Assembly (NCBI GenBank): GCA_008632985.1 | Contig: QPGO01000002.1 | Location: 992,001 to 1,056,000 of the forward strand | Direction of reading: 5' to 3' | From: Psammoneis japonica | Taxonomy: Eukaryota | DNA length: 64,000 nt | Part shown: positions 3,161 through 55,590 of the stretch, in pieces | Numbering within the stretch: position 1 is the stretch's first letter | How the letters are laid out: every line of letters starts with the position of its first letter | The notes under the pieces: model-generated | Told to the model about the DNA's origin: nothing | What the model saw: the letters and a program-made list of their open reading frames with translations, nothing else | The model's database searches: none | Made by a program: the position numbers and the translations under genes

Positions 3161-3408
3161 GTACCGGTACTGTGGAGGTAGACGGAAAGAATACAACCCT
3201 GGGTACAACTGCGTAGGGTCTAGTACTTCTTCTACAGGGTCACCAGGAAAGCACAGACACCGACTTCCGCTACATCAACCTGCAGCACCCTCCAAGACGC
3301 GCAGCTGCGAAGACAACCAAAAAAGAAAACGATCGCGACAATGGCCTCCCTTGCGTCGCTGATATCTATATCTATTTTTGCCGTATTTTCCCGTTTCTTT
3401 TCGCAGCA

Positions 3409-4392: not shown

Positions 4393-4704
4393 AAGAACAC
4401 GGAAGATACGGTCGCTGAAGTGGGGTAACGGTCAGTACAATGTGTAGAATTCAACGGAGAAATACTACGGAATACAACATGGGTTGTATTCCCGGGATAA
4501 TGTAGAAGTATGTCAATCGTCGTTCAGAGAACACAACAGCGTTTTCAAACACTATAGCCCTACTGTCTAGGGATGTGAAATATTCTGCTTACGACCAATA
4601 AAAAAGGAAATATTTCTACTTACGACCAATAAAAACAAGACAGGACGTTAGGTACCAGAGACCATCGTCAACAGGTGATAGTGTTTTCTTTCCTCCAAGA
4701 CAGT

Positions 4705-8668: not shown

Positions 8669-8919
8669 CCTCGAATCAAACATAGATGTTGCTATAGATG
8701 CACCTTCGACTAGCTACAGGTTGTTTCAGCACATTGAAAGAGTTAATTTTCGCATCTCTAGTGGTCGTATCGTACGGAACGTCCCGGTCCGTGAAATGTG
8801 AATTTTGGTTGACTGATGATTCGAATCGAGCTTGGTCGTGAAACCGTCGAAGTGTCGTTCCAAAGGAGGATGCCTTTGACATTTTTTATTTCGCAGGAAG
8901 ATCAGCACAAAAAGCAAGT

Positions 8920-10870
8920 AGGCACCAAAGAGTGTGAATCCTGTGGTTGGACAGGGTTCTCAGGGAAATGCCCAACCAGCCAACCAAAGTCAAGAATGAG
9001 GACGAGGTTCTGCACCCAATGCTGTCAGTGTGCCAGGAGTGTTGGTGGTGCACCTTGGCAGCCAGTGGTGACTCAGGGGGAGTGCCATCCCCAGTCATTC
9101 ACACTTGCAATGATTTTCATGCCACCACCTCAAAGGACCCTCCATCAGAGGAAGCAAGACAAGGCCATGGCACCCTCCCCAAGCACATCTCAGCAGCATC
9201 TGAGCACAACAGGTCAGTGGTCACTGTGCACTGCTGTTTGGCAGCAGTTTTGCAAGGGCCTGGTGAGGTGCAGGGTTGTGCCACTCCTGTGTTTTGAGAT
9301 GCCCGGCAACTGCTGCACTCTGGGCTTGCATCCCCAGGTGCCTTGCAATGGCAACACATGCCCGCCTTGGCTGGGGACATGAACACATGTGTCTTGGTGG
9401 ATTGCCAGTGCCACCAGCAAGCCCACTTGTTGACCCAAGTGACTCTTTTTCTGTCAAAGCATGCACCACCCAGTCTGAGTGCATGTGTGCTTTTTGCCCA
9501 TGAGGCTGCTTTTGCTGGTGCCTCTTTCGCCAGAGGCTGTGCTCATGAAAGTCCATCATGGAGCCAGCACAACTGTGTGCTGCCAGCCAAGAAGTTGCCG
9601 CCAGTGCTCCCAGATTTCCCAAAGGCAGCTTGTGTGGCCACCACAGCAGACCCCAAGATGTCTGCCACCACCCAAGATTGGCCAGCCATTCAATCACAAC
9701 CCCAACTCAGACCTGCCAGATTGGCTGTGCACTGCTCTCTGCCAGCAGCAAGTTCATCATCCCATGGTGCAAGCCATTGACAACTTTGCCATTGAGCAGC
9801 ATGCCAATGTCTTTTTTGTCAGGCCATTGCTCTCCATGATTGTCACCCAGAAGCACAATCACTTGCACCAGCAGTGATTTTTGTTCACAGCTTCAATGGC
9901 TTTGCACCCGTTGTTGCCTCTTTATTTTGTTTCAATGCAACCCAACTGTGCAGTCCAAGCCCTGGCACCTGTGGACTCTGTTGCCTGTGCTGGTGCACTC
10001 TTTTATGATGTCAGCACTGCAAAGCATGCTGTCCAACACAGTGTTGCCATTGCAGCAGACACTGCCTCCAGCGGCTTGCTCGCACATTTCTTGAAAATGT
10101 CAAAGATCCCATCTTCTTCCTAAAGTCTTCATCTCAGCATCAAACTGGTGTCACTGCAAGGCAACCCTGTTGATGTGTGCACCACCAAGGATTCCATGCA
10201 GCAGGTTGGTGTTTGCTGTGAAGGAGTCTTTGGAAACATTTCCCACCCCAAGGCACCAGCATGCTGAACTTCCAACCAAATTGCCAAATCAGTTGCTGCT
10301 GCAAGAAACAACAAGACTCAGCTCCCAAGAGTGCAAAGCTGGCCTCTGAAGCTGTTGCTGATGTGCACCATCATTTTTAATGCACCCAGGCCAGCATGCC
10401 ACAGCTCTCTCTGAAACCCCCTCACATGACTCCTGGGCAACACCTGCTTGGCTGCTGGCAGTGTTTGTCCAGACATCTTCCTTGAGGCTGCCCTTGCACC
10501 TCTCCATTGCCAACTTGTTCATGGCAAGGCAGCTGGACTGGGCCCATCCAGCCACCCCAAACCCTGTCCCACTTGAGCCCCACTCTGTTGTGTGTTGCAT
10601 CAGGGAGAGAGCTCCTGTGGCACCACACATGACACACCCATGCAGGCCCACTTTTGAGAATGGCCAGCAGCACATCAGAGTGCACGAAATGTCAAAAATG
10701 TGCAGATTTACATGATGACAATTTGTGAAAACACTGCAAAATGTTGTTGTCGTGTGATGACAGGCCAACCTCTGGTTGCAAGTTTGGTGCACCAATGTTG
10801 CAACAACTTGTCAAGAATTGTGCATGCTGTTTTTCACTGTGTCCACATCACCATTTCTGCCTCCACCTTG
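8920..10870 (-). mobile_element. Heavily eroded element, possibly a non-LTR retrotransposon (RNase H and 3' region)
   Basis: Near-total TpA and CpG loss; faint minus-strand relics (AATD..GALGW, VCCNG, LLNGKVV, DSIGC) resemble diatom LINE RNase H and C-terminal motifs. Confidence 0.3.
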
Positions 10871-10969
10871 TTGCCACATGCCAATGCATGATTGCATTGC
10901 CACACAAACCTTGGTTTGTTAATTTTCGTAAACATCATTTTAAACGAGAAAAACATTTCATCAGTTGAG

Positions 10970-11761
10970 TCAATTCCTTGTTGTGTCTGCAGTGCAATGA
11001 CCGAGTGCTGTGTCAACTGTGTGCACATTTTCTTGCTGCAACTCTCTTAAACTGAGCCAACAATCATCATCAGACTCGTCTTCATTGGACTCGTCTTCAT
11101 CGGATTCGTCTCCTCCGTTGTTTGTTTTTCCTTTTGCGCCTTCCTCCTGCTCATCGTCGTCACCATTGTCATCCCTGCTGCTCTCCACCATCAGGCTGTT
11201 CATTGCCTTCACCTTCTCCGCATCACCGGTCGGTGCCATCTTCTTCTTCTTTTTTGCTTCTCCGGACTTCTCGCACTCGCTTTTCTTGATCTCCGCATGT
11301 CACTTTTCAAACTCCTTGCCCTCCTTGGAGTCTCTGTCTTTCGTCACCTCTTTGCACAAATCGTTGAACCAAATGATTCCGTCGTCTCCCCAAGACACTC
11401 GTTGTTTCTTTGGCTTCGTGCACCGAGGGGCAGGCCTTGTTTCTTCGGGCTCCATTTCCTCGCCCAATTCTTCCACCACCTCCTCCTTGTTCCTGCATGC
11501 CCACACCTGCCAACAATTCTCTACAGCTGACAGCGCCAAAGCTTCGTCACCCACCGCAAACAACTGTGAGACCTGTGCATTCCCAGTTTTGATGGTGCGA
11601 CTCCATGCCTGCTTTTGCTTGGTTTGAGGTAGGATGTGATCACAGAACCACTTGCATGCCTGCTTGTTCCTTTGTTTGCCGCCGGTGACAGTGTCCAGGC
11701 TAAACGGATCCCATGTCGGCACAAACGGGAGACTTGTTCCAGACTTAGGTGGCGCGCACAT
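10970..11761 (-). mobile_element. Degraded accessory ORF of a diatom DNA-transposon-type repeat
   Basis: Pattern VGDEALAL..VEN.W..W...P.CT....SWGDDGI.WFN.LC..V..DR...F with an acidic tail recalls a repeated TE-associated diatom ORF; TpA-depleted and broken by stops. Confidence 0.45.
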
Positions 11762-12065
11762 CCCCCTTTTCGCAGAAAAAATAATTTTTTAATGCTTCAT
11801 TGAACACCACACATGTTTGATAAAATTGATCATGTCAATGGCTTGTGAGGAAAATAAACAGAATAAACTCGAACAAACAAACAGCCAAACCGGCCTTTTA
11901 GCAGCGCAGGGGGAAGGACAGACACATCCACCCCCCAATGCATGCAGCCTTGAACGACCTGAATGCCAATGGCATTCTTTGCAACTCGTCGCCGCCTGCC
12001 GAGGCAGCAGCAGCAGCTGCAAACTTTTTGACAAAGGGAGCGACATGCGCCAACCTTGTCTCTGG

Positions 12066-14104
12066 ATGGCTGCTGTCCCTCCTGCAGTCGCCGGTGGAGC
12101 GCCTCCGGCACCCCCAAAAACATGCCACGACAAGTGGATGACCCAAGGCGATCACTTGGGAGGGGAGCACACGAATTTATTCCGTCGACACGATGCCACC
12201 GTCGCTGCTCCCAAGCCGGCCGCTACGCTGCTCGAGCACACCATCGACTCGAGCGACGTGGCACCCAAGGCCTTTTTGGTGCCAGTGCGCCAAGGCACGG
12301 GGTGCCGGATTACCTGCATCCACCGGCCCTCGGTTTACATAAGAGACCCGGTGGAGACCTCGCTGTGGGACGGTCGTGTGTTCTGTTTTCAAGGAGATGT
12401 GCTGCCGGGTAACTTCGCTGCCATCTTCGAGTTGCCCAACACTCCGTTTGAAACTGTGGGTCCACAAGTGGCACCTGCGGTGGCCAACATGGCCGCCCCA
12501 GAAGGCACTCTGGTGGATGAAGAGGAATTGGTGAGGTGCCCCATGCCTGTCTGCATCTTGTGCTGAACCGGGATCTCACTCCTCTACAGGCCTGGCGGGA
12601 ACTCGCAGGAGCAATCCAAAACGACGGACGTGCGGGGGACTTGAGTCCCCTCATCGACTGGTTGCGCGCGGCACTCACCACCGACACAGCGGCGAATCCA
12701 GATCCGGTTCAGTGTGTGGGTGATCGTGCCACCGCCTTGCCACCACTTGCGGTGGACGCCTGCCTGCAGGAGCATCGCTGGCGTGCGTTGTTACAGGACC
12801 TTCCCGCCCTGGATACAACGGCCGTAGACAACACCGACCGGGTGCTGGCTTTCGCCAACATGGTCCGCGCCGATGCAGCACGTGCGGAAGCAACACGTTC
12901 CGCAGCGGCGGCAGCGGCCGCCACCTCCAAAACTCCGACGGAAGCCTTCCCGCAGACTGCGCCCGTGTGGCTCTTGCTTTCGAGTGCACCGGATGATGCG
13001 GCTTTACCCGCGCTGTGCCACGCCTGGGCCAACAGCACCAAAGCCGAGCGGCGCCTGTGTTTTGCTCGCGCTTTGGAAGCTCGCGCTCAAGAGCCTGACG
13101 CGGCGTCCCGTGTGGCGCCCACAGTCTCCAAGGAGTTGTACGAGATGGTGTTGCAAGGGAAGGTAGCACCTCACATGCACCAAGTGAACGATTTGACCGC
13201 CGGCGTCTCCCCATTCACGTGCGGCTTCTTTTTGGCTGGACAAGGCTCCACTGTACAAGTCCGGGCCGAACGCTACGACCTCGCGTTGGCTGGCAACTTG
13301 ACGCCTGCCGTTGCGGAACAGGAGGAGTTCCGCACCAAGGACACACCTCTTCCCACGTCCACTTGCCATTGCGGAAGCATGCTTCAAGCTGCCAGTCTGG
13401 CATTGGACGTCATCCAAGGATCGAATCACCCCCATGCTGTGGCATTCTGGCAGTTCTGCTTGGAAGATTGGCGAGACATGGTCGACCTCCTCGAACAATC
13501 GGGAGCACTCCTGGCTGAGGGGAACGCACTTCCCCGAATCTGTCGCGAGGTGCAGATGCTCATGGGAGTCTACCTGCACAGGCTCACGCAAGGTGGTGTA
13601 CCCCGGGTGCCCGACTGCACCGCTGTGGCGCACAAGGTGCTCCACGGACAATTCTCCTTGCTGGCACAGTTGCCACACCATTTGCTTGGCCAACCAGAGC
13701 AGACAACCAATTCCCAGGCGAGCTCAACCAGCGCCAGCAACAGTGGCACCCCTTCCGCGGCTGCCGCCGCTGCGGGACGTTGCGACCCGGGTGCGGCCGT
13801 TACGAATCCCAACCCGGTGCGGTCCTGGCTGACGGCCTTTGCACAAGCCGGGATCCGCCTGGCTACGGTCCGACGTTTCGCACCCCGAACCACGGATTCA
13901 AGTGGCACCGCATGTGAAGTGTGCCTTTCCCATCACCTAAAAGGAACGTGCTTCGCCAACTGTGAGCGTGGCAACACGCACCGGAACCTCTCGCCACGAG
14001 AGAGGACGGCTGTGAGCGCGTTCGTTTGGGACCACGTGTCCAATCCCCAAGAAGGTGGCGCCCCAGCTCCGGCACCCGCGCCGGTGCCGGCGGCCTCCAC
14101 CTGA
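12066..14104 (+). pseudogene. Ngaro gag-like ORF1 (frameshift near 12540)
   Basis: Two overlapping ORFs; C-terminal zinc-finger-like CLSHHLKGTCFANCERGNTH; positioned before pol. Confidence 0.7.
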
Positions 14105-14155
14105 GGACGGGGGCCGGTCAGCCCTGAGGCTGGCCTGCAGCCCTCCTCTGCCTGC

Positions 14156-16141
14156 TTGCCAGATCCGCACCAGCAGTGTCCACGCAGCAACGAACTAGGC
14201 AAGTTGGTGGAGGACCATGTCAAACTCTTACAAACTTTAGGCTGGAGCCAGTTCGTTGCACACCTGCGCAGGGAGCCGTGTCTGGCCGAAAATGTTTGGC
14301 AGCTACCCCACCCAGCTGCCGAGTTACTTTCTAAACTCCGCAACGATGGAGCACCGGTCCAGTTTTCAACGGAAGACTGGTCCCCTCACCAGGTCCGGAT
14401 GGCGACCGACCGTGGGAGCCATCCGTCCACTCACGAGCACCTGGGCTTCCTCGAATCGGACATGGTGGACATGATCCAGAAACGACACTGGACAGTCCTG
14501 CCTTGCCGCGAAGCCTGCAAGCTCCCCCACCTGCGTGTCTCACCGATGGGCGTGGTGCCGCAACGCGACCGCCGCCCGCGCACCATCGTTGATTGCAGCC
14601 ATTGCGGTCTCAACGACGAGACTGTTGAGCACGCCCCTCCAGAAGCCATGCAATTCGGTCGAGCTCTCGACAGGTTCTTGCACAACATCTTCCGTGCAGA
14701 CCCGAAGCACGGCCCGGCACACATGCTCAAGCTTGACCTTTCCGATGGGTTCCATCGCGTCGGGCTGCGACCCCAGGACATGCCCAAGCTCGGGGTGGCC
14801 TTCCCAGTGGGCCCAGGGGAGGAACCGCTGACAGCGCTGCCTCTCGTCCTGCCCATGGGCTGGACTGAGAGTCCGCCATTCTTTTGTGTGGGCACCGAGA
14901 CGGTGATTGACTTGGCGAACAGCTGCTCACCCACAGCTTGGGACCCTCCGGTTCATCCCTTAGAACAGGCAGCGGCCACTCCAGCGCCTCATGACAACAC
15001 CTTGCGCATCGACGTGCCGCCGCCTTCCAGTGCAGCTCCGACTGGCCGCGCATCACGCCTTCCTCCTCCCGCTGCTCTCCGTTGCAGACCCCGACGGGGC
15101 TCTCAGCCATTAGAGCACTTCGATGTCTATGTCGATGATGAAACATGCGCCGCACAAGGAACAAAGGCTCGTCTCAACAAGCTACGTTGACGCCTCTTAC
15201 ACATCAGCGATCAAGTCTTCCGTCCCAACACACCGTCTGACGAGCACTGGCGGCGTGAAACCATTTCGCTAAAGAAACTCCTCAAAGGCGACGCGTCGTG
15301 GTCGACGGTGAAGGTCATTTTGGGGTGGCTCATAGACACACTAGCCGGGACTGTCGAGTTGCCGCCGCATCGTCGACAACGCCTCCTTGATGTTCTGGCC
15401 GACACCATCCCTCGCCGCCGCATGTCCAACAAACAATGCTGCAAACTTCTCAGCAAAGTCCGCAGCATGTTGTTAGCGGCATCCGGTGGTGCGGGCCTTC
15501 TCTCCAACCTCCAGCACTCTCTTGCCACCTCTGGTAACTCCCGCACTCGCATTGACCGCCATGCGCGTCGCCAGCTCCAAGATTTGCACACCTTGGCCGT
15601 GGACATTGTCTCGCGTCCCACTCGGCTGGCTGAACTCTTCCCTGCTGCCGACGGGCACTTCTGCGGGGCGTGCGACGCAGCAAAACCTGGGTTTGGCGGC
15701 GTCCTGTTGCCTGGCCCTCAAGACGACTTCCCTCCTGCCGCCTGGCAAGTTCCGTTGCCTCTAGACCTGCAAGCCGCCATTGTTTCGGACGACAACCCTA
15801 CAGGCACCACAACAAACTCCGACCTCGAGCTAGCCGGCACAGTGCTGCAAGAGGCCGTCGTCGGCATCGCCGTCGACGTCAGGGAACGCACCGTCCACAC
15901 ATGCTGCGACAACACGCCTGCCATTTCCCGGCGCGGAAAAGGCTCTGTCACAACCAACGGCCCCGGCGCCGATGTGCTGCGGACGGGGAGCCTACAACAA
16001 CGGCAGCTCCGACACGTCTCCCGCTTCCATTGCATTCCTGGCCCAGCCAATCTCCTCGCAGACACGTGCTCCCGAAAATTTTCCACGCCGTCTCACCTTC
16101 TTGCTGTGCTTGCTCGCCTTGCCCCACAGACGAAACCTTGA
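14156..16141 (+). pseudogene. Ngaro reverse transcriptase-RNase H (premature TGA at 15188-15190)
   Basis: SPMGVVPQRDRRPRTIVD, KLDLSDGF, LPMGWTESPPFF, YVDD, ILGW; RNase H CDAA..GGV, NSDLELAG, DNTPA, ADTCSR. Confidence 0.92.
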
Positions 16142-17285
16142 CAAATGCCACACCCGCTGCCAGACATCGTTTCTTCACTGATCTCCGCCTTGCGACGGCA
16201 AAAGCCCACGAAGCTGTCACTGGCGAGTGCGCCCGTGCCACGGACACCGTCTGGGCCAAGTGTTGGTTGCCTTTCCTGTCCAACATCGGAGTCGAAGACC
16301 CTCTCCTCACCGGTGTCCAAGACAAAATCCCGATGCTCCAAGTCTTTGCCTGTCATCTTAGGGATGGATGCCTCAGCTGCAGCGGCAACCCAATCTCAGC
16401 TCCGCACGTTCGTGACGAAGTCCTTCACATCACGAAGACGTTCACCGAACTGAGGGCCCCGGACCCGCGGCTAACGCCACACGGCACTGTGGATCCTCGC
16501 CTCACTCGCCTTTGCAGTGCGCACTCCAAAGACGATCCGCCGCCGAACCGCGTCAAGCCTCTGCCGATCCAAATCGTGCACCACGCACAAGCCCTTGTCG
16601 ATGAATCTTCCGCCCTCGACAACGCCATCATCGACATGTCCTGGATCGGCCTTTTCTACCTTCTCCGACCGGGGGAGCATTGCAAGAGCAAAGACAATGA
16701 CCCTTTGGTTCTCAAAGACATCAAACTGCTCGTCGGACAACGCGCACTTGACCACTTGACCTGCCCCCTGCAACAGCTGTTCCTCGCGACACACAGTGGC
16801 ATTGCGTTTGACACTCAAAACATGCTAGAAGCTCTCACTCCAAGGCATGCCCGGTCCTCGCCATCGCCCGCCGTGTGCATTGCCTTCGTTCCAACGGCGC
16901 CAACGCTAACACCCCCCTGTGTGCTGTGCGCCTCGGTGCGCGTTGCGGTCATGTCACGAGCCGTGCCACCACCAAAATGCTCCAAGTGTCAGCTGCTGCC
17001 TTGCCACATTTAGGATTCCTGCCGAAAGATGTCACAGCCCGCAGCCTCCGCGCCGGCGGCGCCATGGCCCTGCTGTGCGCAAAAGTGGACACCGACATCA
17101 TCCGTCTTGTCGGCCACTGGAAATCCGATGCTGTGTTTCGACACCTTCACGCCCAAGCATTGCCATTGACAGCAGGACCATCTACGAAAATCCTGAACTG
17201 CGGCAATTTCACACTGCTCCCAGGGTCCGATGTCCCTCCCATTGCGCAAAACATCATCAATCAAGCCAACGCACCCACCAACTGA
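16130..17285 (+). pseudogene. Ngaro tyrosine recombinase (frameshift near 16820, catalytic Tyr replaced by His)
   Basis: FYLLRPGE, ARSLRAGGAMAL, LVGHWKSDAVFRHLH versus the usual GRW.SDA..RYL. Confidence 0.88.
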
Positions 17286-18539
17286 TGCGTCCACGCCTTC
17301 ACCCACCCTCAGCTCTGCTTCTGGCCCATCCCCTTTTTCCTTGTCGGCCCTCCAAGAGTGGCGGATCGGAGGCGGTCTCGGTTGCTGGTGAGCCCAAAGA
17401 GGGCAAGAAACCCCAGCAAAGCGCTGCTGACACCACCAACCACCGCCTCCCAACTGTGGTGGGACACACCCCCCAGCAGTGTTGGTGGCGAACAGCCATT
17501 TTAGCAGTGCAGGGGGAAGGACAGACGCATCCACCCCCCAACGCACGCAGCCTTGAACGACCTGAATGCCAGCGGCATTCTTTGCAAGCGGCGAGGCCGC
17601 AGCAGCAGTTGCAAACTTTTTGACCCTCCACTCCCACCCAGCCGCCTCATCGGAGGCGGTCTCGGTTGCTGGTGAGCCCAAAGAGGGCAAGAAACCCCAG
17701 CAAAGTGCTGACACCACCAACCACCGCCTCCCAACTGCAGTGGGACGCACCCCCCAGCAGCGTTGGTGGCGAACAGCCAATGGCTTTCAGTGACCATGAC
17801 GGCCCACTTTTTTCAGCCTTGTGGAAAATTGAATGTCATGACCAGGATCTCCGTATTTAATGTAGTCTGTGTCATCAACAACAACAGTGAAAATGCTTGT
17901 TGAAGGCTGCAGCGCGGCACAACAATGCCAAATCTGTCAGCAACAACAATTGAGCCTCTGTTCACTCACAATTTGCCTCTAAGGACCATTTCTTTTCTAT
18001 TGCCATGTACATTTCCTCAACCCATTCGACTGATTCAAGTGTGTCAATCGTTTGTGCCTTTTAAACCGTGAAAAATGGTCGGAAGTCGACGCCATTGCGT
18101 GGGCTGAGCTACAGTGCACTTCTTCTCACGTCGTCCTAAACTTGTTAATCAACGAATGCTTTATTCGATCCGTTGAGTGTAACTCGTATTCGCGCATGAA
18201 AACAAAATGTTAATTGTGCTATGTTAAAGACTTAATTTACACATGTTAATAACATTTTATGTGTTTCTTGTTACATTGGGGCATGTGTAGATCGCTCATC
18301 GGAAAATTCGAGCTCTCAACTTACGGTGCAATTTAGCGACTAATAACTAACTGAGTCCATCAACAGTTTCGTATACATGGGTACACGCACAAGACAATTC
18401 TGCATGTTTGTTATGTTTTTACTGTCGAAAATGGCACCGCAAGTGTGGACCGCGCGTTTCATGCAAAAAGGGTCATTTTTTCGCGCGTGAGTGCACCTGA
18501 GTCTGGAACAAGTCGGGATGTCATTCTCTTCATTCTTGT

Positions 18540-21500
18540 CACGGCTTGACTTTTTCCTGTTTTGCTTTTTCCTCCTGACTGCCGCCTTGAGTTTCTTTTC
18601 TTTTTCCTTTCCCTCTTCCTTGGTGACAACGCCTGTGCAGATAAAGCATCACACCGTCATCTTCTTGTGAGACGCACGCAACTCTCGAATCACACACATT
18701 GGTCACTTGACTTGCGGGCCATTGCCTCCGCCCCAACAGCCGAACACACCGTGTTTCTGCAATTGTTGATTTGCCTTTTTACCGCCATTCCTCCCAAGTT
18801 CCTGACCAATTTGAAGTGTCCATGTTGCCACCAGCAATCTGTTTCTTGAAAAACATTGAGACACTCCCATTGCTTGCCAATTCTGATGGACTGAGAAACT
18901 TCACCTGTGGAAAGAGATCATTTCTAGCCACCTTCTCTACTTCTGATTTCAGTGCACCATGTGCTGCCTGCGTGCCTGTTCTCTTCAACGCTGCCTGAAG
19001 TCTCGGGCTCATTGGCTTGACAGTCTCATTTTTCTTTCTCTTCTTTGCCAGTGGTGCTGGAGACGACATCTTGATCTTCACACGGCAACGATGAGAGCAG
19101 TGTTGCTGTTCGACAGTGCAACCGTCGTCTGGGTCGTGTTGAGACAGCCAGCCACTCCATTTTTCTCTGTGACATTGCATGGGTCATTGTCAGTGACGTT
19201 GAAATTTGAAAATGTGTTCACACATGACAATGAACAGTCCAACTTGCTTTTTGACATGGCTGTCATTGCGTTCCAACGGAGACAATGTCCTTTGTTTTGA
19301 CAGTGAATAAAAAAGAACAACATTCATTGCAAATGCCAGATAAAAAATCAAAATGCAGACACGTCACACCCACAAGAATCATCCAAATCTGGAGGACAAT
19401 GTAATGTTTGGCATTTTCCCGCCATTTTTTGCATGTTGTTCTTCTTTTCCCTTCTCATCCACAAGACAAGGACGATGAGCATGAGTCTTGATGAAGGCCC
19501 TGTCAACATTGACCAGAGAACTGTGAGGCAATGGCATCAGCGTGCAGACTTGGTCAGTCGCTGGCAGCTTGATCACAAACGAAACAACTGGCTTTCAACG
19601 CCTGAGAAGACTCAGTGCTCACCCAAGTTACGGGTTGTCCCTGTCGAAGCAATTGGGGACAATGTTTTGGTTTATGAACAATGTCCAGGAGCAGCAGAAG
19701 CACAAGAAAAGGCCCCATTTGTTTGGGCTGCACAGGACAGAAGGAAGTGTTGGTCAGATTTGTTTCTAAAATGGGACGTGCGTCTGGATCTGTCATTCAC
19801 TCACAGTGATTGCCCAACTCTTTCTTGCAAACATGATGAATTTGATCCTTTCAGAATTGGCAAAGTCATTGCAGCACATGTGAAGCAGTGAGGTGCCAGC
19901 ACCTTCCGTTGCTTTTGTTCTGATGTCTTCTTCGGAAACTCCAAGATGAGCTTCTTCCTGATCGGAAGGCTTTCCCAACCACCGTTCTCGATGTTCTTGG
20001 GTTGCAAGGTTGCTTGCAAAGAACACACTCGCACGGCTCTTTGCAGCATCCTTGTCCATTGTGCATGTGTCGAACACAGCCAATAATTTCTTCCATTGTT
20101 TGACAACCTGGAAGAAGGTTGCAAGAGCAAAGGGAAAAATCACTGTGTCCCCCCCTTCTTCGTTTTTGGAGAGCAAGGCCCAAAGATCAACCAGATTTTG
20201 GAAAAATTGAGTCGTCCCAAAACGACTGTCGCACCACTCTCCATCTGGCATCCAGCAGCAGTCCAACATGATTTGGTCGAACCCATGATCATCAAAATCA
20301 ACAAGTTTCTCAAACTGCTGCTTGACTCTCTTGACGAAATCTCTTGCTTTCACATTGCAATTTAAGTGCAGATCAGGATGTCCATCTTGGAGAGAAACTG
20401 TCAGAACGACATTTGTGACTGTTTTGTCAGATTCCTCAAATGCCATTGCGCGGGCCTCGTCTCGCCTGTGTTGGTCGGACGACACTGAGGCCACCCCCTT
20501 CTCAGAGCACAATTCTTGAGAAGACAGTTGCCTTGCATTGAGCGGACGGGTCATCCCCAACCACAGCACATTGTGTGTTTCCCCGTTAGTTTCGTCACTT
20601 GCGAAACAATCTCCTAAGTCTCTATGGTCCTCTTCAAACTTGGAGCAATGTGCAACTTGGTTGTGCTCATTGTCAACAGGCTCTTCGCTTTTGTCCTCTT
20701 CACCCATGTAAGTTGTAGGAAGTTCACTTGTTTTCTTGTCAATTGACTCCTCCTCGCAATCGTCACTTTTGTTCATTGTGAATGACAACAAATCACCGGC
20801 GGCCTTCTTCCTGTTAGAACGAGAAATCAATGTGACAATGTCAGCACAATCAGACAAAAAACAAATGTGATTGCCATGAAAAAGCAACCTCTCTTTGCCA
20901 TTCCAGTTTGGCTCGAACTTCATCAATCGTCACGAATGGGACTGGCTCCCATTCACACCTTCCAAGGCCACTTGATCATTGATTGCCCATCAGAGAACAA
21001 GAGCAACAGATGCTGTCCGTGACAAAAGACATCGCAGATTCCCATCTTTTCATGAGCTGCACTCAGGTCACATGGCAAAGACTCTGGACCATTCTTTCCA
21101 CAGTCTTCCAAATCAAAATCACCCTCCATCCGTTCCAAGAGTAAATCGTGCTCCTCCACCGGGACCTTCATTTCCTCCATTTGCTTTGCCGCTCCCAACT
21201 TGGCTGCCGGATAGACAAGATTGCAAAGGTCAAGGTGAGGATGGATCCCTGTGCCACACAGCATCAACATCTGTGTAGAGTTCATGCATCTGAACTCTCC
21301 ACAATCAGCACCTGCATGATCCCATGTTTGGACCATGGTTTGAAACACATCCTCGATCGCCTTGTGGCCAAACGTTGGCTTGCCAACATTGTCATTGATC
21401 CAGTCAATGAGAACAACCAGTCTGCCAACAAGCAAATCCATCAAACCATTGAGTTTCGTCCCGCACTCTGCCACATGAACCTCCTCGAAATCGAGTCCCA

Positions 21501-24500
21501 GGCTCTGCATGCGTCGGTTGTTGCGATCCCCCACAATGCTGCCAAATGGCCTCGCAGCTTCTCTGAAGCAATGAAGGACATGATCGCCAGCCACAAAAGG
21601 ATGCTTCACAGCATCTGTGTTGCACAACAAGCAGCAAAAACGAGAGAATCTGGTTTGACACCCAGCCACAATGGTGTGACGAAAGCAATCGTGTGCACCA
21701 ACCTCATCGAGGTTGTCGATGATTGCCGAACAACCGCACGATAAATCAAAGTCCTCCACGATGGCAAACGGAAACGTTTCCTGGCATGACAACAACGGGG
21801 TGCTTGACTGTGTCGGACGGAAGATTTGGCTTGCCAATTTCCTCTTCCACCCACACAGAGTGAGGGTCAAGGAAAAAATCTTTGATGTTTCTGTGGGTTG
21901 GCTTGCCCAACGGAGGACGACAAGGGCCATGGCATCTCATCATTTCTGCAGTGTGTGACAGATCAAGTTTTGCGAAATGACCATGCACACGCGATCGGAA
22001 CTCGGCATGCCCATGTGCCGAACTGACATGGTTTCCAGCATTGCCTTTGGATGCAGTGACAACCTTCAATGACCAAGAGCGACCAACAGCATCTCGCAGT
22101 GATGAGCAAAGAGCACCAGTCTTGGTGCACCCATCCATGTCACAATCCTCTTTGTCAATGTGCAGCTCGGTGTCCGAATTAATGGATTTTTTGCCGGATG
22201 ACGAGATGCACTTAACTTGAATTTCCATGCCTTCCCTTCTAACATGCTTGGCTCCAACCATCTTATGGAGCTCAGCTGCAAAAAGACTGTCACGGTGCGG
22301 GTCATGGAAGGAACGCATTTCTTTCAATGCAACAAGATTAATTTGTCCTTGCAGAGTTGCGTGGCATCCAAGATTGAGGCCATCATCACCTGCACATCCT
22401 TTGGAAGCTTCTCCCGCTTGTCCCTGCCAAAGACAGCACCAGGCTTGTGAGTGGGTCCCACTTCAGCAACTCACCGTCTGCGACTTCGTAATTCTGGCCA
22501 CAACAACCAAAACAGATCCGACAGCGCAACTTGCATTCTGGTCCATCCCTTTTTTTGTTCGGCTCGCCATGTTCCAACACTGCACGGAGTGTTGACAACA
22601 CACTGAATCGCAATCCAAAAAAGCATTTCTGATGCATCTTGTCCGTGTGTCGCAAATGAGTGACCGCATCGGAAAAATGAAGGTTGACTGGGTCGGGCAA
22701 GTGATCGCAACCATCGATTCTTGCGTCGGATCATTGGGAGCCACGCCGTTTTCAAATCCATGCACAAACTTGCAGAGGTGATTCACCAAGCAGAAATCGG
22801 AGATGCTGTGGAATGACTGGTGCTTGACACAGTTCCCCTTGAAGGAACCAGAAATGGGGGTTTCCTCAAAGACGACAAGGTGAGAATGTTGTGACTTCAC
22901 CTCACCCGGAATCGCAAACGGAGATGGTTCAGGAAACACTTTCACAAGCTCTTCTTTTGTGAAATTGTCTGGCGGAGGAGGAGGCGACTGACAAGTCGTA
23001 CCAAGGGTCGGCCACTTTGTTCGGGAATGTTCAAATTGTTCCTTGAGAGTCGGCACATCTTGGAGAATCAGCAATTTGTTCTGAGAAACATCAGAAGGTT
23101 CACCATCTTTGGGGTTTTTGAGACTGGGGCTTGAGGAGCAAAGGGAGGCGGCTAAAGAGGTGGCAAGAAAAACAGAAGAATTAGAGACAAGAAGAGGAGC
23201 ACAAACAATCAATCAAACAACATGATGGATTCACACCATTTGGATTTTTTCGTTTCCGAGCATTTTTTGCAACGGATGGAATTGCATTGCTGATTTCTTT
23301 CTTCTTGCACTGAGTGGCAAAGTCACGAAGCCTGGCTTTCCACATGGCCTCAAAACGATCCCTTGCAGCCTTGCTTTTGCCGGAATCGTCAGCGGCAGAA
23401 ACCACACGATCAATTTTCACACATCTTAAAAGAGTCTCATCAACATGTGTTGCACACATTTGTTCTCGCTCGACATCGAGCATCGCCAGTCGCATGTGTT
23501 GGCGGAACAATGACTTTACGAATTCAGAGAAGGACATGGGGCATTCGTCTTTGGTTGTCTCATGGTGACCAAGAGCCAGGAAATTCTCCAAAAAGTTGAT
23601 GCAAGTTGATGTCTCGTCACATTCGCCGAACAGGGAGCACAGCCAACAATCGCAATCACCATTCCCCTCAGGTGCGCACGGCAGAATCTTGTCACAAAGA
23701 ATCAAAAAACCAATGTGAAGGTGAAAAAACCTTCCCTTCAAAACTTCTCAGCTCAATGTGCTTGACAAGCGGCTCTCCCTTTGGGTCGCACAATCCGGGA
23801 TCATGGAGAAGCTTGCACAACATGGAAATCTTTGCCATCATGTTGGTTGCAATGTCTGTTGATTTTGCCTTGTCGCCGATGACTTTCACATCCTCTGCTT
23901 TGGGAGCACGGCGATGCTCCAATGCATGAGGATGTTTGGCACCTTGACTGGAATGACTCCATCCTTTTGCGGAAAGAAAGTGCAGCAAGCTCTTGTGCCC
24001 AAGTTCCTTTGCAACAATGCGGTTCACAGCCATCAGTTCCACAAAAAAATGAGGTCTGCCCTTCGACTTTTGCCACACATGGGCAAGCGCGATCCAATTC
24101 GGAGAGGGATCACAAGTGGAATTGCGGTGAAACTGAACCTTGGATGTCACCGTCTCGATTGTCGCTTTGACACGGCTCCGCTCGTTGCTGTCGATCACTC
24201 CAAAACCGTTGGCAAAGAGAGATTCAAAAACGGCCTCCTCGAGGTGGGAATCATTGTTGTCTTGCGACAGAGAGGCGACCGACAGGTCACGTGGCGCCAT
24301 GGTTGCTGTTCCAACACCAAAAAATCTGGTTTCTGCAGAAATGCACCAGAGTGGTGTGTGGGAGAAGTTGCATGTGCGCCTGGTGTGATTTGGAGTTTTA
24401 AACACAAAAACCCACCAGACGCGTGTGTGACTTCTCCCAGGGAAATCCTGCGTGAGATTATGCCGGGAAAGGGCAATGCGGAGTGCAGAATTGATGGAAG

Positions 24501-28979: not shown

Positions 28980-29407
28980 AACAAATAATTCTATACGATT
29001 ATAACAAGCACTGTATCACCTACTCACTTGACGTGTGCCTAGAGTAGTCATGTTTTATTTTAGCCCACTTGTGTCGTGAGACAAGCACTTGCTTCGTCTG
29101 AATCGGCTGGACGCACGGTCGTCTCTCTGAACCAAATTTGAAATAGATAGTATATTATTTCACTTGGCATGTGCTATACCTTACTTTGGTGCACTTCTTT
29201 GACTGGCAAGTTGTGGAGCCGTCGGCATGAAAAGTATACATTTTTCGTCTGAATAGATCGGACGCATGACAATCTGGCGGACGCAAAATCTGGAGTCGTT
29301 GCACCGCACCAAATTTGAAATAGACAGTTCTATAAGCTTCTATTGGTACAGTAACACACAATTACTTTACATACATTTTACTTTCACCTAATTCTTTGCA
29401 TGTGGGT

Positions 29408-31942
29408 TCACGGTTTTTTCGGACTAGTTCCAGAAGCTTTGGATACAACCTTTTTCACAAACCCTACCAAGACGCTCGTTCGCTGCTCGCCGATGGTTGA
29501 TATGTTCTGATTCTTCTTGTACGCTATAACTCGAGCACCTAGACCTATGAAGGTAGGCTGTGCTCTTCCCTTCTTCTTGTTATCCAGGGGGCTCTTCATG
29601 CCAGCGTCTTCTTCCATCTTTCTCATTTTTTGCAGGCAAGTGTTTTGCACGGCGTAACAAACATTGTGGAATTCGACGGATGCATGGTCATGAATACGTA
29701 TCGTATGCCACTGGTCTTCCGTCATGACGTGTTCTAGGAGCTCCATAGCTGCTTTAAACTTCTGTGGCTCTGCTTCACTGTTTGGAAACTTGAGGTGCAA
29801 AAGCCGCTCCTTGGATGACGAAGAAAGGTGTCCATGCTGCTTGAAGAAACTTGGGCATACATGCAGAGAGATTTTTGCGCCTGTACTGTTTACCAAGCCA
29901 TCCACTTGCTCCTGCAATGTCAGTTTCTTTTTCTTTTTGTTTGAAAACTTCTTACTCACAACTCCGGCCGAGAACAGTGTCGCGACAGCGGGAGGTCGTT
30001 GCTTTCGCGTGGAGGCCGTGACAGGCTGAGTCGCAGTGGCTGACTCGTCAGAATCCACACGACGTCGAGAAGCAGCCGGCGCGTCACCATCATCAGTAGT
30101 AGTAGCATCAGCATCTGGTGGGCTTACAGCATAGGCAGCCACATTGTTGTTTTGAGTGGAGCCGGCGTTTTCATCAATAACGTTGCACTCGATGCCGCCG
30201 TCTCGATTGGATATTTTTTCGTCCGCAAAATCCGTCGTGCTATCTTCCTCCTCCGATGATAGGAGTTCAATATTCCTTTTCTTACTGGACTGATTGGCCT
30301 CAAGCTGAGCCATCTCCAAGTTGCGAATCGCGTGGGCTTGCTCGGAAAGCTCGGTACGTTGTGCATCACACACTGATAATACACGAGACAGTAGCTCATT
30401 CTGCTGCTTTATCTGTAAAGCAAGGTTGATGTCACTTGAAAGATCCGGGTTGCGGTCTTGAAAGCTAGCGTCTATTTTCTTTCCCCAGATCCGAAGCACT
30501 TGTGAGGTGTCAGCCGTGTCACCATCACGAATCTTCGCTTCTGCTGCAGCACGCTCCAACGTGTACACGATTTGATGGTTTTGACGAAGCTCCTTCGAAA
30601 CTTCAGCGTGATGCCGAATCATACTAGCCGTGCAAGAACGCAAGAAGGGACGCAGCTCCCCTCCTTTCAGAAATTGAGCAAGAGAGTCAGAGATCATATA
30701 CAATTTTTCAATGAGACGTTCAACATCATCTTGTACATGGCTCCCAAGGCATTCCAAGTTTGGAGCAAATTTCTTGCCGGCAGTATCATCCCAGCCCATC
30801 ATCGCGTTTGCCGCTGGAAGAGTGAGCTGCGGTGTAATTCGTTTGTAAGTCTTGCCATTGGCAGCTCCGGGCGCCCATCCAACTCGAGCGTCCGCTTCTT
30901 CAACTGACACTCCTCGATGCGAATTCAAGAATGTAGCCATACCAACTCGAACAGACTTAGAAGAATAATCGTTCTGTAGAACCGGGTTGACCTTGCTTCG
31001 AATGATAGACGTCAACTTAGCGGCAACATGCTTGTCGCTCACGCTCCACAAGTCTGGAAAAGTGCACTTGTGGAGCTCCTTCTCCATGCTGTCTGGACGA
31101 TAGAGACCTTTCTCACAAGAATAGAAACACGCGAAAGCATGGTAGAGATCAAAGAGATAAGACTTTTTGTTTGGTGGGAAGAGGAGTCCATACAAATCCA
31201 CAGTCTTCGGCTCACACCACGTTGCTTCCAAATTCTCATAAAATAAATCCCAGAACCATTCATCGTGCCGTTGATGCCTCACTTCCCCTCCACGTCCAGC
31301 AGCCATAGCACCCATCAAAATCCAGCAACGCTGCTGAAGAGGGCCATTGTTCATCATTGGATAATTGCATTGCAGAACAAGAGCAAGAAGCAACGTCTCG
31401 ATGTCGTTTGCGAATGCACCGTTCTCGCGTCTCAACATTGAATTTCTGTCAGACGTAAGAATAGTATTTCGCTGCTTGGCTCGAACATATTCTGAAGACA
31501 CGTTTGGAACCAGGGGCAAAGTCCTTTTGTCAGAATGCTCCATGCTAAGGAGGTTGGCTTTATCAGTGGCCTTTGCCACATCTTTGAACAGAGGCTTGCA
31601 CCACTTGTCCTCGTCTTCCCAGTCAGGGTGCTTGGGGAACTTCATTTTTAGCGCTTCTTTGACCTTTCCAAAAATTCGCTGCTTTCCGTCAATTCCTGCT
31701 AGCCCGTTGGAGGGATTGTCATGCCGATGGATGGGCTCATCCGACAAGAACTTGCTGAAGCGCATCATAAGTGTCCTGAGGTGGCATCCATCCACATGAC
31801 GTTCCTCCAATCCGTGAAACGGCTTGTCTTGTTTTTTGTCTTGAAACGCGTCAAACGTTTTGATTGCAGACTTATCGCCACTTATGGTAGAAGGGGCCCT
31901 AGACGCCTTCATGATTGGCGCCTCAAGGGTCGAAGTGGGCAT
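29408..31942 (-). CDS. Crypton-like tyrosine recombinase, 844 aa
   Basis: AAGRGGEV (Arg I), YSSKSVRVGMAT (H-x-x-R box variant), RVGW..GKTY (Trp and catalytic Tyr); no RT nearby. Confidence 0.7.
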   Translation of the reverse strand: MPTSTLEAPIMKASRAPSTISGDKSAIKTFDAFQDKKQDKPFHGLEERHVDGCHLRTLMMRFSKFLSDEPIHRHDNPSNGLAGIDGKQRIFGKVKEALKMKFPKHPDWEDEDKWCKPLFKDVAKATDKANLLSMEHSDKRTLPLVPNVSSEYVRAKQRNTILTSDRNSMLRRENGAFANDIETLLLALVLQCNYPMMNNGPLQQRCWILMGAMAAGRGGEVRHQRHDEWFWDLFYENLEATWCEPKTVDLYGLLFPPNKKSYLFDLYHAFACFYSCEKGLYRPDSMEKELHKCTFPDLWSVSDKHVAAKLTSIIRSKVNPVLQNDYSSKSVRVGMATFLNSHRGVSVEEADARVGWAPGAANGKTYKRITPQLTLPAANAMMGWDDTAGKKFAPNLECLGSHVQDDVERLIEKLYMISDSLAQFLKGGELRPFLRSCTASMIRHHAEVSKELRQNHQIVYTLERAAAEAKIRDGDTADTSQVLRIWGKKIDASFQDRNPDLSSDINLALQIKQQNELLSRVLSVCDAQRTELSEQAHAIRNLEMAQLEANQSSKKRNIELLSSEEEDSTTDFADEKISNRDGGIECNVIDENAGSTQNNNVAAYAVSPPDADATTTDDGDAPAASRRRVDSDESATATQPVTASTRKQRPPAVATLFSAGVVSKKFSNKKKKKLTLQEQVDGLVNSTGAKISLHVCPSFFKQHGHLSSSSKERLLHLKFPNSEAEPQKFKAAMELLEHVMTEDQWHTIRIHDHASVEFHNVCYAVQNTCLQKMRKMEEDAGMKSPLDNKKKGRAQPTFIGLGARVIAYKKNQNISTIGEQRTSVLVGFVKKVVSKASGTSPKKP

Positions 31943-33010
31943 GCTGCACGGCTGCTCTGTTGTTGCGGGTGGCTTCTGTGACAGCTGTGTGGCTGCGTCT
32001 GCTTTTTTGTGAGACGATATCTCCTCCGTGCCGTGTCTCTAGTCTCGAACTTTAGCACGGTATCGCAGAAGTCTTGCGGGTGGTGGTGAATCTGATGATG
32101 TAAAAATTCTGGCGCGTTTCAAGGTTATGTGTGTATACAGACATGTGATGTTATATTTACATCAACTTTCAGAGAACTTTCGGGTTACTTCTTCTGAAAG
32201 TTGCCAAATCTATTCCGGAAAGAGCAGCAAATTGCCCGAGCAGTTTTGAGCTGCACCGCACGACTAAAAAATTTAGTATCATGAAGATAGAACGACTTTC
32301 AGAAAGAGTGAATGACCTTGCTGCAGTGGCTTACAGTACAAAGATCCATGAGCATCCATCAGTTAAAAGTCTACAGTATCCGGTCTTTGTGTCGATGTCT
32401 CGATGTCTTATCTTTTTTTTCCAATTCTACGAATCCTTACGTAGAATTTCAATAATGTCAAGATCAAACTGTCAATGGCCACATACACATGACTGATGAG
32501 AGCCAACAGACTCTCATCCCGCGGCCGCCTGTGCACAGTTGACTTGTGCGTCAAGTAAGTTCTCTTGTTTTTTTGCGTTCTTCACAGTTCTTCAGAAGTT
32601 TATTATCACATTTTGTGTTCCGCCTTACACGCTGACTCACATCATTTTGCAACATCATCGCACATCATGTTTTAAAGTTTCGCTCGTCATACCGTAGAAT
32701 TTTCGCCACGAAAATAACTGCGCGATGCACGACGTGTCCTTTCTATTCTACAGAAAGATTAGTACTTATCTAGCTAGGTACTTCTACTACGTCCGACAGG
32801 ATCACGACTAGGGTCATTGTTCTAGAAGCGCATTCTTCTCACAAAATACCGTAGCTGTTTCATCGTCCTCGCATGCCTCTAACCAAGAATAACAACAGCC
32901 GGATCTTTGTTTCAGCTTATCACGACTGCAGTCATCGTTCTAGAAGCACGCTCTTCTTCCTTCTTCCTGTCCTCGCAAATTTGGCCGTTCGTCGTTCTCA
33001 CTTCCCCGGC

Positions 33011-35149: not shown

Positions 35150-35246
35150 TGCGATAGTCTACTGCGCCTGACAGTTCGACGGACGTATTAGATCATTAGG
35201 TACATGTAACAAATAGAGATATTCGTGTCGCGAGAGCGTACTCACT

Positions 35247-38037: not shown

Positions 38038-38109
38038 GGTTAATGCATTCGAGTTGAAAATGAATAATTTCACAGATTTTAGCGAAAATACAAAATTATT
38101 GAATAATTT

Positions 38110-54099: not shown

Positions 54100-55590
54100 G
54101 CCAATGACCACCAGCAAGGAGCGAGCGAGATGAGCGGTCTTTGATTGTTCAAAGGTTGACCAAGAATGGGAGCCAACACCTGGCCCACACCATGTTGGCA
54201 GCACAGGCATGCTCATGAGTGACAGCTTGGTGGGCCTCTGCAATTAAGGTGCAGAGAGACTGTTGTGGAAGCCATGCCTGGGGAGGTGGACAGTGCACTT
54301 GCCAGGAGGGGCTTTGTTTTTGTTCTTGTGGCGCAACATGTGACAGAGTCACACAAGAACAAGGGCAGCTTTCACACAATTCAGAGATGCCACTGTTGCA
54401 GGCTGGCAGCTTGGAGGAGGATGCCAGTCACTGGGCCTGTCATGGTGACTGAGCCCTTTCCTTTGCAACTTGCAAGCTGGTGTGTGTGTTTTGTCACAGC
54501 CCGCATGGTGGGCTGCATTTTCCCGCACATGTCAACCATGCTGCCTGCCACTGCCTCCTCTTGGAGCATCATGCCAGCCAGTTCAAGATCCAAATCATTG
54601 ATGACCCCACCCACCTGAGTTGGCATCTTGTGTGGCGCAGCTTTGAAGATCTGTGCCGGAGGCCGTCAGCGAGAAATCTCGTCATTTGGCCCCAGCAGCA
54701 AGGCACCTCTGAGCTCCAGTTTGGCAGCACTGGTGCAGGCACACCACAGAAGTGTTCTTTGGCAGCAGAAAAGAGTTTGGCCAGTTGTGTGGGGCATGGC
54801 ACCATGTCTGAAGCTGGCATTTGGCACCTGAGTCTGTGAAAGACATGGGAGAGTTTTGCAAGTTTGACAACATCAGCTGAAAAACACAAAGCATCAATGA
54901 TCCAACCCAGGATGACCCTGATGGCCAGCCATTTGGTCCCCCCCCCCCCCTCCTTCAAGAGCTTCTCAAGGGATGTGGTTTCTCTGCAGCAGTGGTCATT
55001 GGCTCACATGTTGAGCAAGCAGGAGAGCTGGTGGTTGTTGACATGGAGGCATTCTTGATGGCACAGATGATTGAGCCAAGCCTTGCAACCTTCTTGCATG
55101 ACTCCAACATTGTTGTCTGGGTGAAGAACATCAAAATGTTGGAACTGCCTTCAGCTCTCAGCAGCATCTCTTCCATTGAATTGACTTTGGATCCATGAGC
55201 TTTTGCAAATGGCTGGCATGTGTTGGTTGGTCAGCAGGCAGAACATTGACTTGCAATGCCTTGTCTCATGGGCTGCCACCTGCTCCAGTGGGTGCACTGG
55301 AGGAGGACCCCATGCAGCAGCTGTGCATGCATTGGCCAAATCCGTTGGTGCCCACAAAAAAGCAAAACAGACTTTTGACCCAGCCCTTGGACAGAGCCAA
55401 TGAAAAGGTGATGAGAGGCTCTTTGACCAGACCTTCCAGAGATGCCAAACCTGGTTTGGGTGTGTCAGCAGGCTTCAAGCCCACCCCAGAGAACCCGTTG
55501 GCATGATCCAGCTTGATGAGATAAAAACTGGAGATCTTGTGTGGGACTCGACCCAGCATGCATCTGAATTGCATGGCTTCTGGCATCTGT
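54100..55590 (-). mobile_element. Older eroded copy of the Ngaro RT-RNase H-YR region
   Basis: Colinear relics PEAMQF, KLD..GF..VGLKP.DTPK, PPVHPLEQ, ILGWIID, DLELAG..LQE, GKGSVT, VWARCWLPFL. Confidence 0.85.

Follow-up and report, generated by a model that had tools for sequence, protein, structure and literature searches.

Evidence that mobile elements of the diatom Psammoneis japonica lose TpA ahead of CpG, with a signature that matches TpA hypermutation in Bigelowiella natans

RIP of ascomycetes is a repeat-directed process that introduces dinucleotide-specific transitions on both strands, disables mobile elements and is tied to cytosine methylation. Hypermutation of TpA has been described for integrated NCLDV and virophage DNA of Bigelowiella natans, for which the main text of a preprint gives a mutation rate per generation raised ca. 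1000-fold, with activity limited to certain lines, and proposes an ADAT2-like deaminase (Mettrop et al., 10.64898/2026.01.13.699255). The terms "diatom" and "CpG" are absent from that main text, the supplement of which may treat the flanking context, and a literature search covering titles and abstract openings returned no report of TpA hypermutation in a diatom. Excerpts on TadA/ADAT2-derived adenine base editors indicate a preference for TA over CA and AA, and for these over GA, with TAC/UACG favoured (PMC8065034, PMC8052359), although for ABE7.10 TA exceeds GA by only ca. 3-4-fold (PMC8065034). In diatoms, CG methylation of TEs is maintained by DNMT5, as stated in extracts of an article in which no passage on deamination occurs (PMC9998398). 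Finally, the Ngaro superfamily (DIRS order) is outlined in part of a further article as elements of ca. 6 kb with an A1-[ORFs]-B1A2B2 organisation and gag-like, RT, RNase H and YR products (PMC8547959).

The window analysed here, a 64,000-nt stretch of P. japonica contig QPGO01000002.1, contains elements whose mutational signature matches the B. natans hypermutation. As in the main text of that preprint, changes are TpA>TpG/CpA only, are regional, concern foreign or mobile DNA and leave TpA-poor, CpA+TpG-rich clusters; the TpA-poor genes of B. natans, enriched in transposon domains, also resemble the diatom case. The preprint deals with two viral regions in mutation-accumulation lines of a rhizarian, whereas the targets here are Ngaro, Copia and Crypton-like elements of a diatom. 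Compared with what that text presents, the diatom case adds near saturation, an order relative to CpG decay, a bias towards a pyrimidine on the 3' side and domains within single elements.

Table 1. Features of the window.
Feature	Position	Strand	Remarks
Left arm of high-copy repeat hosting the Ngaro insertion	10700..11895	.	right arm 17780 to ~18400
Ngaro-type retrotransposon (putative tyrosine recombinase), mid-stage	11896..17779	+	losses from source ~73% (TpA) and 13% (CpG)
Split direct repeat A1	11896..12032	+	84% to A2 over 145 columns; alignment extends back to 11888
ORF1, gag-like by position	12521..14104	+	without Pfam match
RT/RNase H frame	14105..16141	+	broken by stop at 15188-15190; RVT_1 E=0.003, below cut-off
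Putative tyrosine recombinase region, frameshifted	16145..17285	+	motifs RPGEH 16666, RSLRAGG 17040, FR[H/C]LH 17133
Split direct repeat B1	17365..17498	+	95% to B2
Split direct repeat A2	17491..17624	+	aligned to A1
Split direct repeat B2	17649..17779	+	aligned to B1
Crypton-like element, earliest stage	29100..32221	-	ORF 29408-32038, 876 aa; left end at or before 29100
Decayed Ngaro relic, late stage	54100..55590	-	TpA O/E 0.02, CpG 0.14; distant kin of the focal Ngaro

The focal Ngaro element has the repeats, size and coding content outlined for its superfamily (PMC8547959, in part), its YR being putative, and differs in that all nine copies examined in its family are mutated, none being found TpA-intact. 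The same layout occurs in sister copies, with eight further near-full copies in the genome. Short-read contigs contain the empty site, in which 11895 is joined directly to 17780, and the repeat that hosts the insertion has a contig depth of 3,000-17,000 versus ca. 55 for single-copy DNA. The RT/RNase H frame has 445 homologs, which are annotated PF00078. Pfam searches with ORF1, the YR piece and the ORFs at 20953-26310 were uninformative. Motifs that we take to be those of RNase H were identified by eye, and YR-like motifs include one, FR[H/C]LH, whose variable position presumably corresponds to the catalytic Tyr and is His in three and Cys in five of eight copies.

The earlier note had described this element as still CpG-rich and the relic as having lost both dinucleotides, and both descriptions hold. 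In the focal element, 49 TpA are observed for 225 expected (O/E 0.22) and 469 CpG for 536 (0.87); in the relic, 2 TpA remain for 84 expected and 14 CpG for 103. Ordinary genes of the window have O/E values of 0.46-0.61 for TpA, against 0.02-0.22 in mobile elements, and of 0.88-1.02 for CpG; flanks of twin loci are almost unchanged. The two 18-mers quoted in the note were located at 15821 (+) and 54590 (-). Reading the two Ngaro copies as one time series failed, since they share only 32-36% protein identity and a DNA match of 87 bp at ca. 72%. The relic was also rejected as a late stage of the focal family, being too distant: its only close match, at 96%, is its own twin from one and the same insertion event, leaving no family for polarising changes. 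These two copies thus do not prove that TpA is lost before CpG; family comparisons do.

Such series were obtained in three element classes, and TpA loss almost certainly runs ahead of CpG loss in the elements of this genome, as the note had proposed. The Crypton-like element has 16 matches in the genome, eight of them at 98-100% and with a common right end; its ORF matches NDC10_II and Phage_integrase clusters (Atlas features, 0.95-0.97) and has gene-like O/E values (0.47 for TpA, 0.89 for CpG). Relative to its least-hit sister it has lost 15 of 129 TpA and none of 160 CpG, in line with the impression that it was lightly hit. Seven young copies together have lost 196/862 TpA and 3/1088 CpG, and two older ones 70/82 TpA with 24/106 CpG and 84/106 TpA with 42/136 CpG. 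In the Copia family C1 (27 loci), TpA and CpG losses go from 0/0 through 0.6-0.7/0.04-0.07 to 0.92/0.57, with a Spearman coefficient of 0.90 over 12 TSD-matched hit copies. Ngaro families lie at 0.62-0.83 for TpA versus 0.08-0.22 for CpG, losses in the focal element being computed by a star model over family copies. The two losses are not proportional at all ages: the TpA:CpG rate ratio falls from ca. 15-90 early, through ca. 10 in the focal Ngaro, to ca. 2-3 late, this last slowdown resting on 6 and 7 events.

The changes arise after insertion. In 17 of 20 LTR pairs, three chimeric loci being left out, the two LTRs differ at 135 TpA-type, 6 CA/TG and 14 CpG-type sites and by 4 transversions. 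The split repeats of the focal copy had been said to differ mostly at such sites; this applies to 9 of 14 differences, chiefly of CpG type (8) with one of TpA type (CA vs TG), against 5 others. The difference quoted in the note as CTGTGGT in B1 and CTGCAGT in B2 is real, and the site reads CTATAGT in sister copies. A given TpA may become CA in one copy and TG in another, both strands are equally hit (225 CA vs 221 TG at RTAY sites) and strand-coordinated runs were absent from all four copies examined. Per base, A>G reaches 0.34-0.36 after T versus 0.002-0.018 after A, C or G, with transversions at 0.002-0.005; TA is favoured ca. 45-fold over AA/CA. The following base matters (0.53 before C, 0.41 before T, 0.27 before G, 0.17 before A), TAY being preferred. 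Off-target A>G is raised 3-fold in TpA-hit parts, 71 of 79 cases being NAY, in the order AA ~ CA > GA. As a point against the main reading given below, Ngaro families are not hit most strongly at TACG (CTACG is retained at 30/55 sites in the focal family); protection of TpA by a neighbouring CpG was seen in Ngaro and is absent from C1 (54/218 vs 346/1350).

Strand equality, the palindromic nature that TpA shares with CpG and the occurrence of CpG decay in the same domains (see below) would also fit a modified base at TpA of silent DNA, such as 5hmU/5fU or methylated adenine, that miscodes or decays without a dedicated deaminase. Available portions of two articles report 5hmU on dinoflagellate TEs, with a TA and TC preference in one species and, on the opposite side, no sequence preference in Breviolum (PMC11572971, PMC11071213). 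Against this reading, changes outside TpA are rarest at TC/GA here (13/4298). A Tet_JBP search of the genome gave no match, nor did the control query. Overall, we regard a modified base as unlikely, though worth keeping in view.

TpA loss fills bounded domains: for 11 of the 12 copies fitted, the change-point model did better than each of 10 shuffles. CpG loss is 3.3-fold higher inside TpA-hit parts (93/1816) than outside (17/1072), and both decays very probably act in one shared domain. The proposal that the TpA process is faster than, or separate from, 5mC deamination is thus retained as to speed and chemistry, but not as to location. No correlation with CpG loss emerges for domain length, taken to the 3' edge (rho 0.29, p 0.39, n=11), and broad domains are often shallower than narrow ones; a front advancing with time thus finds no support. 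A universal 5'-first polarity was discarded: 9 of 11 young C1 copies conform, but in C3 the 5' end is spared, and C2b/C4 are variable. That polishing overwrote 3' halves is unlikely, with 25 private variants (3') versus 29 (5') and 11-25 pairwise differences.

Polymerase-eta-like synthesis errs at WA motifs. Error-prone repair of silent DNA, possibly set off by lesions at 5mC, would accordingly place A>G changes at the TA sites of either strand, link them to methylated domains and account for the slight excess of AA>AG; it is nevertheless quite improbable given the 45-fold excess of TA over AA, transversions that do not rise in hit parts (9/23222 vs 7/16449 elsewhere) and TpA loss that comes before nearly all CpG loss.

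A RIP-like process of reversed polarity, triggered by homologous pairing, appears slightly less probable still. The targets are indeed repeats, mutated by dinucleotide-specific transitions on both strands, and family-specific hot zones recur in independent copies. Yet RIP proceeds by C>T and raises TpA, which falls here, and it hits both duplicates, whereas identical LTRs of one insertion are unequally hit (13 vs 0, 14 vs 0), the loss in a duplicated gene (1-2511 / 33355-35906) falls within the final 900 bp of one of its copies, next to a repeat, and three full-length members of the 27-locus Copia family are untouched. RNA editing copied back by reverse transcription, or an assembly or base-calling artefact at modified bases, could explain a raw excess of TG over CA on the sense strand and the chimeric Copia loci of the assembly, but is extremely improbable: the excess vanishes with context control, LTRs diverge after insertion, the multi-copy Crypton-like element (YR ORF, no RT seen within 3.1 kb) is also hit, short-read contigs, checked over 8800-18400, match the assembly at 8800-9801 (one other letter) and 14899-15072 (none, including changes private to the focal copy), and losses shared by the twins of a single insertion have the same direction in 98/98 cases.

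As a whole, the data are probably best explained by a silent domain combining a targeted TpA edit with slower CpG decay. After insertion, the host would mark part or all of an element as silent; a targeted process would there turn A:T into G:C at TpA (TAY best) on either strand, giving TG/CA, and most TpA would vanish before more than a small percentage of CpG has decayed. The CpG of the same domain would decay more slowly to TG/CA by deamination of 5-methylcytosine, continuing once TpA is spent. We infer that these domains are methylated or silenced chromatin; a DNMT5-type gene (Tudor, DNMT-fragment and SNF2) is present. Decay of CpG by 5mC deamination is well known, and cannot yield A:T>G:C changes. 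On the DNMT5-methylated CpG of diatom TEs it would account for the slower CG>TG/CA arm. For the faster arm, DNA adenine deamination by a TadA/ADAT-type enzyme guided by silencing has about an even chance of being the chemistry. A>G in TAY is equivalent to T>C in RTA, so that the attacked base cannot be told from sequence. The A>G change and TA-best order are those given for TadA editors in the excerpts cited above, with far stricter specificity in the diatom; natural TadA/ADAT2 enzymes act on tRNA, whereas the changes here are in element DNA. The deaminase genes found, ADAT2-like on contig C26 and TadA-like on C38, are ordinary and lend the mechanism no support.

Loss of Tyr codons is marked in the focal RT/RNase H frame, which has one Tyr in 677 residues (0.15%) versus 1.07-3.53% in 120 homologs. 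Of four apparent Tyr to Cys/His changes quoted previously, GFHRV, LPCRE and DCSH are true Tyr sites, being TAT/TAC, TGY or CAY in other copies and Tyr in 120, 81 and 112 of 120 outside homologs, so that His/Cys is not fixed there; PGEHC is fixed in the family (CAT TGC in all eight copies holding the site). Against expectation, and without explanation, the Tyr of YVDD is retained in 9/9 Ngaro copies. Such losses would disable RT and recombinase, and the process would thereby act as a genome defence.

The suggestion that TpA loss can date insertions is borne out for ordering the youngest copies. Otherwise it is a poor date: its extent differs between positions of one copy and with the neighbouring bases, its onset is the targeting of an element and not the insertion, and it levels off near 0.9. 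Domain size and context also influence it, and its rate later drops to about 2-3 times that of CpG. Transversions were rejected as a neutral clock: most are source-element differences (unhit Copia copies are 13-18 apart), and those after insertion are near zero (one in the twins L065/L066).

To date, the only account found of this signature is that in the main text of the 2026 preprint, which concerns viral DNA integrated in a distantly related alga. The present families include members at all stages of the process, and this establishes its order, target context and domain structure; the loci named as unhit, part-hit or saturated allow direct tests of mechanism through methylation, inosine and small-RNA maps. 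A further consequence is a strong bias, in this genome, of insertion dates taken from LTR divergence and of profile searches that depend on Tyr. More tentatively, diatoms may possess an epigenetically guided DNA adenine-editing defence, in effect RIP with A:T>G:C polarity and common to diatoms and Rhizaria, that would nucleate at family-specific zones (in Copia C1, immediately 3' of the 5' LTR), spread in a few generations, erase Tyr codons and then cease, with CpG decay still going on; the enzyme responsible would be a natural DNA adenine editor acting in double-strand context, the possible existence of which is indicated by these data.

TpA loss runs before CpG loss, as the earlier note had claimed; family series of the Crypton-like element and of Copia C1 both show it. 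The Crypton-like element has 16 matches, and eight of the ten fetched loci are 98-100% alike. Scored against sites that at least one young copy retains, the seven hit (TpA-depleted) young copies have lost 11-55 TpA each (196/862 in total) and 3/1088 CpG; the window copy, correctly described as only lightly hit in its ORF, has lost 15/129 TpA and 0/160 CpG, and two older copies have lost 70/82 and 84/106 TpA with 24/106 and 42/136 CpG, respectively. For Copia C1, 27 of 38 matches were fetched (all but the 11 with no more than 72% identity) and three real copies with near-identical LTRs served as rulers. TpA/CpG losses form the series 0/0, 0.09/0.011, 0.33/0.028, 0.50/0.030, 0.68/0.036, 0.73/0.072, 0.91/0.28 and 0.92/0.57, the oldest values containing source divergence, and correlate at 0.90 over 12 hit copies with matched target-site duplications (TSD). 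Differences within 17 LTR pairs correspond to 135 TpA-type, 6 CA/TG and 14 CpG-type sites and 4 transversions. The lead narrows late: between twins (two assembled loci of one insertion), the assembly sequence gives 7 TpA and 8 CpG differences over the initial 3 kb of Copia twins L129/L131, and 47/1055 CpG, 6/76 TpA, 1 transversion and no CA/TG conflict for one Ngaro insertion.

The Ngaro element has the A1...B1A2B2 repeat layout given for Ngaro in the available text of PMC8547959, and its empty site occurs in short-read contigs, 11895 being directly joined to 17780. A DNA search with it gave 14 matches, nine of them near full length. The GFHRV site reads TAT in two copies, TGT in five and CAT in two, with the same behaviour at LPCRE and DCSH; Tyr occupies these three sites in 120, 81 and 112 of 120 outside homologs, which together with the Tyr codons of other copies upholds the proposed Tyr to His/Cys changes. 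PGEHC, proposed as a further case, is CAT TGC in 8/8 copies and is not one. Where the recombinase should have its catalytic Tyr, 8/8 copies carry His or Cys. A few TpA sites are kept in 9/9 copies (window 15128, 12410; loci L015-L022), including the YVDD Tyr codon, and five surviving sites are grouped at 14196-14332, close to the ORF1/pol junction, as if these sites were protected. The two Ngaro copies of the window had also been read as young and old members of one series, but the relic aligns with the other over just 87 bp at 72% (protein, 32-36%), and they therefore do not make up a series of one family.

When the four most closely related copies of the 11896-17779 family are fitted to a star model, TpA loss is 0.73 (window), 0.68, 0.68 and 0.71 and CpG loss, in the same order, 0.13, 0.08, 0.08 and 0.10, with transversions at 0.2-0.5% and a modelled source at TpA observed/expected (O/E) 0.78. 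Pairwise conditional estimates of TpA loss are lower (0.33-0.59) because sites differ, 13/173 TpA surviving in all four. Three further Ngaro groups show TpA loss of 0.62-0.83 versus CpG loss of 0.09-0.22, the third not being a clean star.

Along the window, which is 992001-1056000 of contig C3 in a 91 Mb assembly, TpA O/E drops to 0.0-0.3 within repeat blocks, against 0.4-0.8 in the rest; the TpA-poor blocks include both CpG-rich and CpG-poor ones. For one host gene the closest named homologs come from raphid pennate diatoms (38-44% identity), and the genome is accordingly taken as that of a diatom.

Features of the window, with O/E values
Positions	Strand	Feature	TpA	CpG	Remarks
1-2511; 33355-35906		Partial duplicate (89.5%), ferric-reductase-like and MCM-like gene region (labels from translations)			TpA loss in 1-2511: 22/40 in final 900 bp, adjoining repeat, 7/65 in remainder; suggests spill-over from silent DNA
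10700-11895; 17780-18400		High-copy repeat, host of Ngaro			Contig depth up to 17,000 versus 55; TpA retained in right arm (0.58), not in left (0.17)
11896-17779	+	Ngaro	0.22	0.87	
19000-25000		TpA-erased, CpG-retaining block, long ORFs	0.08	0.65	No Pfam match for the long ORFs; probably an unclassified mid-stage mobile element
29100-32221	-	Crypton-like element			
38108-41521		Element whose long inverted arms are 84% complementary; short repeats inside			TpA depletion only partial
43440-53671		Tandem paralogs, long low-complexity Glu/Lys/Pro/Ala-rich regions and DnaJ domain			DnaJ Pfam match in 51813-53324 frame
54100-55590	-	Ngaro relic	0.02	0.14	

Loss occupies copy-specific domains. In Copia C1 it reaches 0.8-0.95 in hit segments and is near zero elsewhere in the copy, segments starting at the 5' LTR or at position 400-500 and ending anywhere within 2200-5900; of 11 young copies, nine are hit more heavily in the 5' half and one less heavily there, and a 5' LTR may have lost up to 14 TpA versus 0 in its own 3' LTR. 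Mosaic copies or polishing could produce such domains, but hit 5' LTRs are on average nearer to their own 3' LTR than to other copies, directions of change are not common to different TSD-matched copies and unhit 3' parts retain private variants, all of which argue against this source. These tests were run without L129, five truncated old copies and six chimeric or gapped Copia loci recognized by TSD and flank checks (L101, L102, L106, L120, L121 and L131), whose mismatched TSD and swapped flanks reflect misassembly or ectopic recombination between copies. Other Copia families are patchy; the first 700 bp of C3 are spared, 5' LTR and leader keeping TpA (0.9-1.0) in 3/3 copies (L116-L118) with the remainder erased, the opposite of C1. 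In the family of the 11896-17779 Ngaro, 33 TpA remain in the terminal repeats A1 and B2 versus 6 in the internal ones, A2 and B1, with clustering in four copies. CpG loss amounts to 93/1816 within hit parts versus 17/1072 outside. CpG loss is not tied to the length of a domain, so that a moving front is not proven and the claim is limited to copy-specific domains.

An assembly artefact was rejected, since short-read contigs of run X1 agree with the window (1 differing letter in 8800-9801, 8 in 9803-10698, none in 14899-15072 at single-copy depth), the last match including two CpG losses private to the window copy among four young Ngaro copies; X1 being possibly the source sample, this verifies letters, not independent biology.

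We show that the process acts on DNA, after insertion, on two strands, as A:T>G:C at TpA. A>G at TpA depends on the next base (C 0.53, T 0.41, G 0.27, A 0.17), survival being best in YTAR (131/247) and worst in RTAY (70/516), a flanking preference confirmed in three Ngaro alignments; CA and TG products are equal in symmetric contexts, and off-target A>G, 3-fold up in hit parts, has a 3' pyrimidine in 71/79 cases. The early process is 10-90 times faster than CpG decay and lies in the same domains; the proposal that it is faster than or separate from 5mC deamination stands for speed and for chemistry, with the qualification that the domains are shared. In tRNA, U33 precedes A34. An adenine deaminase of TadA/ADAT type may be the agent, the context order being like that of such enzymes in the accessible parts of PMC8065034 and PMC8052359. 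Only ordinary deaminase genes were found in the genome, and modification of the T or A of TpA, instead of a deaminase, has to be taken seriously as a rival explanation; poorer fits are given by error-prone synthesis and RIP-like pairing. The hit domains would represent silenced, CG-methylated chromatin, a view drawing on the portion consulted of PMC9998398; a DNMT5-type gene is located on contig C76. Several C5 DNA methyltransferase copies (L083-L085, L089; G000:C301, C297) lie in TpA-erased DNA (O/E 0.06-0.11) with Tyr to His/Cys changes, which points to a methyltransferase gene that a repeat carried, or that was duplicated inside one, before being hit.

No report of TpA hypermutation in diatoms was found in the literature searched. 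The finding is real and is a variant of the type recently reported in Bigelowiella natans, where TpA hypermutation has the same signature in the part available of bioRxiv 10.64898/2026.01.13.699255. Contrary to the earlier note's inference, TpA loss alone is unable to date insertions; it orders only the very youngest copies, older ones being ranked by CpG loss, and jointly the two thus provide a two-hand clock, ordinal in nature, for the time elapsed since targeting.
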